Part shown: in pieces, positions 25,395-29,400 of the stretch | How the letters are laid out: every line of letters begins with the position of its first letter | How positions within the stretch are numbered: position 1 is the stretch's first letter | Virus record (IMG/VR): IMGVR_UViG_2693429774_000011 | DNA from: a virus | Lineage: Duplodnaviria; Heunggongvirae; Uroviricota; Caudoviricetes | Strand: one strand, 5' to 3' | Length of the DNA stretch: 40,169 nucleotides | The notes under the pieces: generated by a model | What the model was told of the DNA's origin: nothing | Seen by the model: the letters and a program-made list of their open reading frames with translations, nothing else | Databases searched by the model: none | Position numbers and translations under genes: made by a program

Positions 25395-25745
25395 TTACTT
25401 CAACCGTTCACGGGCCGTCTTCGCCTTATGACACGGCCAGCACAGGCTCTGCAGATTGCTGTCGGCATCAGTGCCGCCATGCGCTTTAGGGATGATGTGG
25501 TCAACGGTTTTCGCCTCGCGCACCACACCGGCACGCAAACACAACTGACACAGGCCTTTGTCACGCTTCAGTACACGCCCCCGGATAACATCCCATTTCG
25601 AACCATAACCGCGCTGGTGTCGGGACTGGCCTGGCTTGTATTGCTTCCAGCCTTTGCTTTTGTGGCTTTCGCAATAGCCTGACGGGTCAGTCGTGGTATG
25701 GCGGCAGCCGCGAACGCGGCAGGCTTTTGGGGTTCGTGGAGGCAT
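25395..25745 (-). CDS. HNH endonuclease (packaging-associated)
   Basis: 116 aa with CxxC...HxxxH...CxxCH zinc/HNH motifs, immediately upstream of the terminase genes. Confidence 0.8.
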   Translation of the reverse strand: MPPRTPKACRVRGCRHTTTDPSGYCESHKSKGWKQYKPGQSRHQRGYGSKWDVIRGRVLKRDKGLCQLCLRAGVVREAKTVDHIIPKAHGGTDADSNLQSLCWPCHKAKTARERLK

Positions 25746-25872
25746 CTATTATCCCTGTAGTTTTCGTTAAATATCTAACCATAACTGCAATCAAAAACCG
25801 CTTTAACACGGTTTGTTAAATAGACTTTTCAATCCAATGAACAAACGGCAAATAAATACCAATCGTTAATTT

Positions 25873-26328
25873 TCATTTGAATACAAACGGTTCTGAAAGA
25901 ATATTATGACAAATACATTTCGCCTGAATGCTATTATCTCTCATTCTAATATATTCTTTGTGGGCAACAGATAAAGAACGACAACCGCTGTTTACACTTG
26001 GGTATTTTTCCAACATATGCTCGCATATCAAAAAAGCATTATTAATAGCATTTAATTTATGGCTTAACTCTCGTAGCTCGGCTCTTTTTTCAATACGAAC
26101 ATTACGACTAAGAGATAAAGGTAGCTGTGATAATGCATTTGAATAATCAGCCACTGCCATTTTCAGAGCCATTTTGGCCTTCAGAGCCTCCTGTCGCCGC
26201 CAAACATTCATTGCCCAAAAACCTAATATAACAGTTAAAATTGAACCTAAAGCCGATACAACTGAACCTAAAGCCGATACAGCAGACCACTCTGTTCCCG
26301 AATGCCAGTTAAGTAACGTATGCCACAT
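25873..26328 (-). CDS. membrane-anchored protein, function unknown (AT-rich cargo)
   Basis: 151 aa from ATG with GGAGGT RBS; one N-terminal TM helix then a helical soluble domain. Confidence 0.55.
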   Translation of the reverse strand: MWHTLLNWHSGTEWSAVSALGSVVSALGSILTVILGFWAMNVWRRQEALKAKMALKMAVADYSNALSQLPLSLSRNVRIEKRAELRELSHKLNAINNAFLICEHMLEKYPSVNSGCRSLSVAHKEYIRMRDNSIQAKCICHNILSEPFVFK

Positions 26329-26661
26329 AATAACCTCCACTTAATGAAAAGGTTATTTTATCGTAACTAAGCACCACAGGCACTATCTAAAGATTAGATG
26401 CCCTACCAGTTGTACCATCGATAATCCGCACAAAAATGATACGTAATGAACCAACTGATAACTAACTCTGCTATGCACATTTTTAATCATCAACAAACGA
26501 TTTGTATTAACTTCCTCTCTCATACTAGCCCAAAAGGTTGGGCTAATAATTAATCACGATACATATTCTATGTGATGACATACTTTATGTAAGCTTTTAC
26601 ATTACACTATAGAAGCTGGAGCACCTAAACTTTATGCATCATATCTTTATAATAAATAACA

Positions 26662-26940
26662 TCACTCTGGATATTTATACTTTGAATGCAAAATAGCGCG
26701 CCGTGATTCAATATTTCTGATTCCGGTTTTATCAAAATTACATTGTCCTAACGCTGACAACAGAGCCACATTCAACTCCAGACTAGCACCATATGTCAGT
26801 GAACTGGGTATAATTGGAATCGGTGTTTCAGAAGTCAGGCTGGCTGGCAGTGGTGCCGCCGGAATGTTCACGTAAATTGTCCGCGTACTTCCGCAACCGG
26901 TCAGCAGCGGTAGCAGGCACAGGACGTGAAGCGCAATCAT
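26662..26940 (-). CDS. o-spanin (Rz1-like lipoprotein), start embedded in Rz
   Basis: +1 frame within and beyond Rz; lipobox LLTGC. Confidence 0.6.
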   Translation of the reverse strand: MIALHVLCLLPLLTGCGSTRTIYVNIPAAPLPASLTSETPIPIIPSSLTYGASLELNVALLSALGQCNFDKTGIRNIESRRAILHSKYKYPE

Positions 26941-28593: not shown

Positions 28594-29400
28594 CTATTTC
28601 TTAATGATGCTATTTAACATTTCTAATGCAAAAAGCAACATGGAGCTAATAAAATATAATATAACCGCACTGGCAATCGCTCCAATTATAGCCTGGACAC
28701 TCCAGTGAAAGTAATTTTTACCATTAATAACAAACTTAACACTAGGAAACAAAAAGTCGATAAGCTTAATTATTAATGGAATAGCAAAGCTCCATAAGTT
28801 CGAAAACAAAATAAAGATACAAATAAATGATAAAGCAAATGCACCATCGATTGATAGTTTTGGCGCCAGTTTTGAGGCTGTCCATAAGCTAAGCAAAAAG
28901 CCAACTGTCACACCTGAAATCTGGATACTTAACATAGTCCAAGCTGTTCTAAAAAATCTAAATTTATTTTTGCACTTGTTAAGTAAATCCTGAATCGTAA
29001 TCCATAACGAGTCAACCCACTCATTATCTTCCGATGCTACAATCATTGTGCTGCTATTTGAATTCCTCTCATCAATTCGTAGCTCCATCCAAGATCCATT
29101 CATCCTGTTAGACTGTCGACTTTGATAAGTTTCAATAGTAAAAATTATTTGATCAATCCTAGTGGCCTGTCTAAAGTATTTCACAAGCTCACCGATAGAA
29201 TCAACTTTATATCCCTTACCATCGAACAAAATAAAAAAAACACATTGAGCACAAACTTCCCTACTTTCCTTTTGAGCTTGCTCATTCATTTTAACGCAGC
29301 GTTCGACAATTGCCGTGCTTAAGCTAATCAAGCTATCTTCATTTATAGAAACACCTGAAATATTCTTGCTTCTGTAAAAATATGACACTTTCGATTCCAC
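28594..29400 (-). CDS. cargo protein: soluble N-terminal domain + C-terminal multi-TM domain, function unknown
   Basis: 268 aa, very AT-rich, between tR' and the holin genes; about 4 TM helices in the last 110 aa. Confidence 0.6.
   Translation of the reverse strand: MESKVSYFYRSKNISGVSINEDSLISLSTAIVERCVKMNEQAQKESREVCAQCVFFILFDGKGYKVDSIGELVKYFRQATRIDQIIFTIETYQSRQSNRMNGSWMELRIDERNSNSSTMIVASEDNEWVDSLWITIQDLLNKCKNKFRFFRTAWTMLSIQISGVTVGFLLSLWTASKLAPKLSIDGAFALSFICIFILFSNLWSFAIPLIIKLIDFLFPSVKFVINGKNYFHWSVQAIIGAIASAVILYFISSMLLFALEMLNSIIKK

Follow-up and report, generated by a model that had tools for sequence, protein, structure and literature searches.

The window analyzed here, the 40,169-nucleotide (nt) stretch of DNA in IMG/VR virus record IMGVR_UViG_2693429774_000011, is an HK97-like lambdoid prophage of Escherichia coli that is read on the minus strand. 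An antiterminator gene is followed by genes for two holins, a GH19 endolysin and LysB/LysC-type spanins, then by the subject of this work, a gene of the phrog_6169 family (25873-26328, minus strand), and then by genes for an HNH endonuclease, the P27-type small terminase, the large terminase, portal, protease and capsid. The original prediction, made from the sequence alone, described a 151-amino-acid (aa) open reading frame (ORF) with a strong ribosome-binding site, located in an AT-rich stretch and preceded by non-coding DNA. All of this holds on closer analysis: the frame opens at ATG 26328, 5 nt past the Shine-Dalgarno (SD) sequence GGAGG (26334-26338, minus strand); its GC content is 37.7%, compared to 32.7% in the upstream spacer, 30.7% in the downstream spacer and 50.6% in the whole window; and positions 26329-26661 are non-coding, the sole sizeable ORF within them (26383-26523) having been rejected as it is broken by a frameshift or stop codon in the closest relatives. 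The mechanically called ORF starts at GTG 26340 and gives 155 aa; the RefSeq product WP_032300356.1, a "hypothetical protein", is identical to the 151-aa ORF that starts at the ATG. In codon alignments with relatives from 14 loci, the median pairwise dN/dS was 0.16 (77 pairs), with dS of about 1-2.6, that is, with synonymous sites near saturation. The gene is therefore real, under purifying selection, and not a chance ORF.

The encoded protein matches phrog_6169 (PHROGs v4, "unknown function") over residues 8-151 with E = 1.1e-58, and so do all 59 aligned family members. This family has no described function, structure or regulation, such that membership names the gene without explaining it. 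The family is small: in a set of 1.84 billion proteins, it forms 22 clusters at the 90% identity level and has 69 representatives at the 50% level. Its distant relatives, at 45-65% identity, were found in Enterobacter, Hafnia and Salmonella as well as in metagenomic viral contigs. Searches of Pfam, NCBIfam and PADLOC with the window protein and 59 relatives yielded only sub-threshold noise (DUF4190 over the transmembrane (TM) region; Rad50, E = 0.1), a PDB sequence profile search gave nothing below E = 0.15, fold searches with the window protein gave no informative match, and a literature search by accession and PHROG identifier found nothing on the protein. The original prediction recognized no homolog, and phrog_6169 is still the sole family match. 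It also named a known lysis or packaging family as the assignment that would count against it; no such family was matched, although the neighboring genes matched theirs strongly.

Residues 14-42, encoded at 26203-26289 (minus strand), are hydrophobic (up to 2.1 in a 19-residue Kyte-Doolittle window) and rich in small residues (SAVSALGSVVSALGS), with no lysine or arginine before them and the pattern RR..K.K..K after them. Across the family, the mean number of lysines and arginines is 4.1 on the C-terminal flank of this helix versus 0.4 on the N-terminal flank, and the C-terminal flank is the richer one in 57 of the 59 members. The predicted topology is accordingly N-out/C-in, with a single TM helix followed by a cytoplasmic four-helix bundle. 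AlphaFold2 (mean pLDDT 81.6) models the protein as entirely helical, with helices at residues 12-68, 75-80, 82-102, 110-127 and 134-145, the first of which extends from the membrane into the four-helix bundle; confidence is low at residues 1-30. Both the single N-terminal TM helix and the helical soluble domain anticipated by the original prediction are thus recovered. Conservation across the family is concentrated in three spots, namely, the small-residue face of the TM helix, a juxtamembrane helix with the motif W-R/K-x-Q-E-x-L-K-x-K, and a C-terminal FVF motif. The soluble bundle diverges down to about 20% identity, with the juxtamembrane motif retained. A candidate Zn site (C102, C116, H123, C140), conserved in the close subfamily, was rejected because the cysteines are not kept in the wider family.

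The gene lies in a variable cargo segment that extends from the Rz1/LysC spanin gene to the HNH start codon (25746-26707, minus strand) and was delimited by alignment with an empty-site prophage and with other contents of the slot. Compared to the empty-site E. coli prophage (L048), similarity is gone from 26707 to 25759; with other relatives, it resumes at 25745. In sister E. coli prophages, the stretch between the Rz1 stop codon and the HNH start codon takes one of several forms: an empty gap of 26 nt, a gene for a GrlR-family regulator, a gene for an S1 peptidase, a pair of antisense hypothetical genes, or the phrog_6169 gene. The sister prophages with an empty slot or other contents are L048-L051, from E. 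coli CUVET16-321, GCEC19, EH08-18-36 and TW10828; a terminator-like hairpin follows both the GrlR gene and the S1 peptidase gene, neither of which has an SD-masking hairpin. Among 5426 complete E. coli genomes, 27 carry the phrog_6169 gene, whereas the spanin and/or HNH flanking sequence, used as a 1.9-kb query, was matched in 1294 E. coli genomes. E. coli lysogens with the cassette include strains CFIAFB20190172, AH62 and AH65, and strain Sanji carries the 144-aa allele. The variable segment starts within the last ~45 nt of the Rz1/LysC frame (26662-26707, minus strand), and therefore prophages that differ in cargo also differ in the C-terminal tail of their outer-membrane spanin.

Presence or absence between collinear backbone genes, seen here as an empty site and four alternative contents in sister prophages, and a base composition that departs from that of the window (37.7% versus 50.6% GC) are the marks of a moron, and the phrog_6169 gene is a member of this class from an uncharacterized family. 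We are highly confident that the cassette is a single-gene moron encoding an N-out/C-in membrane protein. The interpretation of the lysis/packaging junction as a cargo position, already put forward in the original prediction, is borne out by the empty site and the alternative cargo. The morons of HK97 and HK022, reportedly described by Juhala et al. in 2000, are said to be promoter-gene-terminator units inserted between backbone genes. The phrog_6169 cassette resembles them in its presence or absence at a precise backbone junction, deviant composition, single gene, terminator in most relatives and -10-like box upstream. It differs from morons of the HK97 gp15 type in lying at the lysis/packaging junction rather than in the tail region and in that its promoter is only a candidate, and the classical description of morons does not include an SD-sequestering hairpin. 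HK97 gp15, a moron product, is a small inner-membrane protein; we know of no sequence relation between it and the phrog_6169 protein. The comparison with lambda bor that was drawn earlier holds for the genomic slot but not for the type of gene. Lambda bor, like Iss, is a cargo gene that lies between Rz and nu1; it is transcribed against the direction of the late operon, and its product is a lipoprotein of the outer membrane, whereas the phrog_6169 gene is co-directional with the late operon and encodes a bitopic protein predicted to reside in the inner membrane with N-out/C-in orientation. The protein has no signal peptide, its N-terminus contains neither lysine or arginine nor a lipobox, and it matches no Pfam or NCBIfam family, which places it outside Bor/Iss.

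Everywhere in the family, the gene is accompanied by two elements that occupy about the last 35 nt before the ATG, a TAnAAT box and, abutting it, a hairpin that masks the SD sequence. That these elements travel with the gene is a new observation of the present analysis. The AT-rich upstream spacer of about 320 bp pointed out in the original prediction is present in the window but belongs to the E. coli lineage alone and is not shared by the family as a whole; the conserved part is these last ~35 nt. The hairpin (26332-26354, minus strand) consists of the 5' arm AACCTTTTC (26354-26346), the loop ATTAA and the 3' arm GTGGAGGTT (26340-26332). In the consensus, the 5' arm AACCTCC pairs with the SD arm GGAGGTT, after which comes the ATG (26328 in the window), and base pairing involves the SD zone in 45 of the 49 distinct 5' regions compared. 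Covariation was assessed in a structure-blind MAFFT alignment of 37 distinct regions from relatives, with 500 shuffles and slid positions as controls. Hairpin cells were paired in 79% of cases versus 71% in the shuffles, and there were 39 double-sided changes versus 23, with neither value reached in any of the 500 shuffles; the covariation score was 0.329, compared to 0.216 in the shuffles and 0.11-0.145 in the slid controls. The clearest pair switches lie outside the SD core (A-U/C-G in 13 versus 11 sequences, and C-G/A-U in 13 versus 11). Because SD accessibility in the single sequence is unremarkable, the case for the hairpin is a comparative one; on this evidence, the hairpin is probably a translational control element maintained by selection. 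For the U-rich 5' arm of the window, which makes U-G pairs with the SD sequence, an RNA thermometer is possible.

The TAnAAT box, TAAAAT in the window (26355-26360, minus strand), is a candidate -10 element. In the 37 distinct relatives, both T residues are invariant, the three A residues show at least 90% conservation and the third position varies freely, a pattern resembling that of a sigma-70 -10 element (T-12, A-11 and T-7 fixed, third position free). The box is the most conserved upstream block, with 90% pairwise identity versus 44% in the adjoining spacer, and stands 0-1 nt before the 5' arm of the hairpin. At the other end of the cassette, DNA similarity to distant relatives ends within 2 nt of the stop codon, and a canonical intrinsic terminator lies within 150 nt downstream of the family gene in 33 of 49 contexts; in an independent subset, this is the case for 6 of 15, against a background of 8.9% (p = 0.001). 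The window itself has a weak terminator-like hairpin 59 nt past the stop codon (AAACCGT/GCGGTTT followed by TTGATTG; 25788-25814, minus strand), which does not pass the stricter terminator criterion. Two diverged paralogs of the family occur together in some phages, either adjacent or about 2 kb apart (L038, 3412-3897 and 3998-4429; L067, about 842 and 3001), each with its own TAnAAT box and SD hairpin; these pairs, together with the divergence of the soluble domain, hint at diversification.

We interpret the locus as a moron cassette whose gene is masked on late read-through transcripts and whose product is a membrane protein expressed in the lysogen and acting in phage exclusion, a composite reading that we advance tentatively, as slightly short of an even call. 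The product is predicted to be a bitopic inner-membrane protein with a short uncharged N-terminus outside and one TM helix rich in small residues, in which the juxtamembrane helix keeps the four-helix bundle of about 105 residues at the cytoplasmic face. The cassette brings its own control region, with the TAnAAT box followed by the SD-pairing hairpin and, in most relatives, a terminator after the gene. Q-antiterminated late transcripts coming from the lysis genes would carry both arms of the hairpin, so that the ribosome-binding site would be masked, whereas a short transcript from the TAnAAT box, starting about 7 nt after the box and thus inside the 5' arm, would lack most of this arm and could be translated. 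Synthesis of the protein would thus be confined mainly to the lysogen, which the protein would shield by hampering, from the cytoplasmic side of the inner membrane, the genome entry or early development of superinfecting phages.

Two components of this proposal are each less secure than the hairpin itself. A promoter inside the hairpin that discriminates between transcripts is a tentative suggestion from the arrangement of the sequence elements. Promoter-within-hairpin translational discrimination is known for the T4 genes e (lysozyme), soc and I-TevI and, as "fold-back inhibition", for IS10; McPheeters in 1986 and Davis, Simons and Kleckner in 1985 reportedly described these cases. As in T4 e and IS10, an upstream complement pairs with the SD sequence, a -10-like box would place the predicted start inside the 5' arm, and the pairing of the SD sequence appears to be kept by selection, given the 45 paired regions of 49 and the covariation above both the shuffled and the slid controls. 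Unlike in T4 e, soc and I-TevI, the polarity would be opposite, with the late read-through transcript being the silent one, and the box is of the sigma-70 type rather than a T4 late promoter. The function in exclusion or defense is likewise a conjecture that we hold with some doubt. Lysogen-specific expression would favor a role that benefits the lysogen, and for a cytoplasm-facing inner-membrane protein, the commonest role of this kind is interference with superinfecting phages. A related kind of function is exerted by SieA of phage P22, a protein of about 160 aa that is expressed from the prophage, resides in the inner membrane, carries a conserved cytoplasmic motif and blocks DNA delivery; it is encoded in the immI region (PMC10883804). 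However, SieA has three predicted TM segments (PMC10883804), compared to one in the phrog_6169 protein, which thus lacks the SieA-type architecture.

Several observations weigh against this interpretation. Neither the window protein nor the family shows similarity to known exclusion proteins, and PADLOC has no family for the window protein, with only scattered single-member matches at E >= 0.002 among the 59 members. The compensatory changes in the hairpin fall largely between two clades and thus represent few independent events, and the window leader folded alone ranks 7th among 41 window genes, that is, it is no outlier. The -35 element of the candidate promoter is poor in the window (GTGCCT, 3 of 6 positions), and a consensus promoter scan did not flag the candidate site and found promoter-like sites no more often than in shuffled sequence. 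In relatives with an intact upstream dyad element (described below), an extended -10-like site, TG-n-GATAAT, would start transcripts that still hold the hairpin. In one group that includes phage CobraSix, a sewage isolate, the family gene is located between the large terminase (TerL) and portal genes. Finally, the window allele may be impaired by a duplication in the TM helix and the substitutions P9H, W10S and V13E.

Next to exclusion, the product could be a lysogenic-conversion factor of another kind that modulates a host membrane process, such as envelope stress, transport, division or signaling. This alternative shares the cassette and the membrane topology with the exclusion reading, but there is no positive sign of a particular host target and no conserved partner gene, and all contexts examined place the family in phage late regions; we consider this alternative rather unlikely.

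A role in lysis timing, with the protein made late in small amounts as a holin modulator or an antiholin-like factor at the cytoplasmic face and the hairpin serving to keep late translation low, is an improbable alternative. In every context examined, the family gene is co-directional with the late operon, and in most relatives, it is the first gene after the spanins, with a gap as short as 25-80 nt that leaves no room for a separate upstream region; furthermore, the small-residue face of the TM helix would suit helix-helix packing. Yet the gene assorts freely with at least four unrelated lysis cassettes (Phage_holin_8 plus 3_7 with GH19; lambda-type holin with GH104 or GH24; Phage_holin_2_1 with lysozyme; Phage_holin_3_1 with GH108) and with three packaging modules (HNH plus P27-TerS; Nu1-like plus GpA; ParB_N plus TAGT plus Terminase_2), which makes a dedicated partner in lysis or packaging unlikely, and most phages with the same holin/endolysin cassettes lack the gene, which argues against a specific holin partner. 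The protein matches no lysis family in Pfam or PHROGs, be it of holins, antiholins, spanins or LysA/B/C, the gene of the CobraSix group lies away from the lysis genes, and terminators directly after the gene suit an autonomous unit. Like the T4 antiholins RI and RIII and the inner-membrane spanin subunits (i-spanins), the phrog_6169 product is a small protein with one N-terminal hydrophobic segment, encoded beside lysis genes. RI and i-spanins, however, are N-in/C-out proteins with periplasmic domains, whereas the charge bias in 57 of the 59 family members predicts the opposite topology, and the phrog_6169 loci already encode complete spanin pairs.

Still less probable is that the family is functional but the window allele is in decay. 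A tandem duplication of 21 bp (26242-26281; 1.9 copies in TRF) adds 7 residues to the TM helix and, being perfect, is recent. Most relatives are 144-145 aa long and lack the duplication, and this rare allele was found in 3 of the 5426 complete E. coli genomes and in two viral contigs. The substitutions P9H, W10S and V13E fall at N-terminal positions that vary little or not at all among close relatives. The upstream dyad and its TG-n-GATAAT site are degraded in the window, and the low AlphaFold2 confidence at residues 1-30 could be added to the case for decay. However, the duplication amounts to exactly one extra heptad (SAVSALG), so that the small-residue face stays in register, the reading frame, SD sequence, hairpin and TAAAAT box are all intact, and outside these changes the protein shares about 98% identity with the common allele. 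An accessory role in DNA packaging or in the HNH-terminase system is very unlikely: although the gene is immediately upstream of the HNH endonuclease and terminase genes in the window, the family occurs alongside three terminase systems that are unrelated to one another, prophages that share the HNH/terminase genes mostly do without it, and a membrane anchor is unexpected in a packaging factor.

Just upstream of the cassette in most relatives outside E. coli, we found a dyad-symmetric element of about 41 nt (GGCATTACAG-CAGGCATTCACTGAGTGCCTG-TGATAATGC) that includes the TG-n-GATAAT extended -10-like motif and is present at the lysis/packaging junction of many enterobacterial lambdoid phages. 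Its 21-nt core occurs as an exact match in more than 120 IMG/VR contigs, and close copies (35-46 nt, 86-100% identity) are found in phi80, mEp390, ZF40, ST64B and many Klebsiella phage records; the sites are L069 (2925-2965), L029 (4925-4965), L082 (phi80, JX871397, 44302-44337), L083, L084, L085 and L086-L165. Among the matches listed, the flanks are unrelated on both sides across 108 distinct contexts, and the orientation is always that of the late operon. Of the 121 listed sites, 75 have a same-strand lysis homolog upstream (upstream sequence of at least 2 kb is available for 80), and 68 have a packaging homolog downstream (enough downstream sequence is available for 76). The element precedes at least 25 unrelated clusters of small ORFs, including lipoproteins, the HNH gene itself and phrog_6169 genes. 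It matches no Rfam family, and a literature search by the dyad sequence found nothing; as judged by eye, readings as a sigma-54, CRP, LexA or Fur site were rejected, none of them fitting well. The window contains no intact copy but retains a restructured remnant (GGCA-TCTAATCTTTAGATA-GTGCC; 26379-26402, minus strand), recognized by comparison with the dyad of lambdoid phages. The dyad might function as a portable promoter/operator, as a hairpin for RNA processing or as a linker for recombination. A more ambitious, and rather speculative, proposal joins these threads: the junction would be an organized cargo-expression site, where the dyad acts as a portable, possibly operator-controlled promoter or recombination linker ahead of interchangeable cargo, the cassette adds a -10 box inside the SD-masking hairpin such that the protein is translated only from the prophage-state transcript, and the product represents a new class of single-pass, cytoplasm-facing exclusion factors.

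Between the dyad remnant and the lysis genes, the window has the AT-rich non-coding spacer of the E. coli lineage (26403-26661), delimited by comparison with relatives. It contains a small hairpin (26526-26545, minus strand; TAGCCCAA-CCTT-TTGGGCTA), for which relative L010 has a compensatory C-G to T-A change, and a palindrome (26587-26602, minus strand; ATGTAA-AAGC-TTACAT), neither of which is followed by a U-run. An Rfam search of the upstream spacer gave nothing above threshold, with PhotoRC-II as a sub-threshold hit (E = 0.43). In a related viral contig (L069), the Hfq-binding small RNA isrI (Rfam RF01392, 55.9 bits, above the gathering score) was identified at 585-681 on the plus strand, about 2.3 kb upstream of the family gene.

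The family is rare. A tblastn search of 50,697 phage records with the window protein gave no match, distant family members used as queries matched only CobraSix and Salmonella phage 118970_sal3, and a scan of genome representatives added just one family locus. In 118970_sal3 (KU927493.2; L047, 5001-5554), the family gene is annotated as two short ORFs and is apparently an interrupted copy; this 77-kb record has a second family match near its end and an attR annotated inside the packaging region. The window encodes a second AT-rich ORF (33-37% GC; 268 aa; 28594-29400, minus strand), located between the Q-type antiterminator and the holins, which has several hydrophobic C-terminal segments and matches phrog_30208 (unknown function; E = 8.5e-162) but no family in Pfam, NCBIfam or PADLOC. 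This ORF probably represents a further moron.

Temperate phages house their host-altering genes in morons, the majority of which still lack annotation. The phrog_6169 cassette is small and experimentally tractable: its boundaries are well defined, and nature supplies both an empty-site control and allelic variants, among them the 7-residue TM duplication. The dyad element may explain why cargo builds up at the lysis/packaging junction. If the masking model is right, the cassette shows how a gene that is co-directional with the late operon can stay lysogen-specific, and if the protein excludes phages, it would represent a new, single-pass architecture among inner-membrane exclusion systems.

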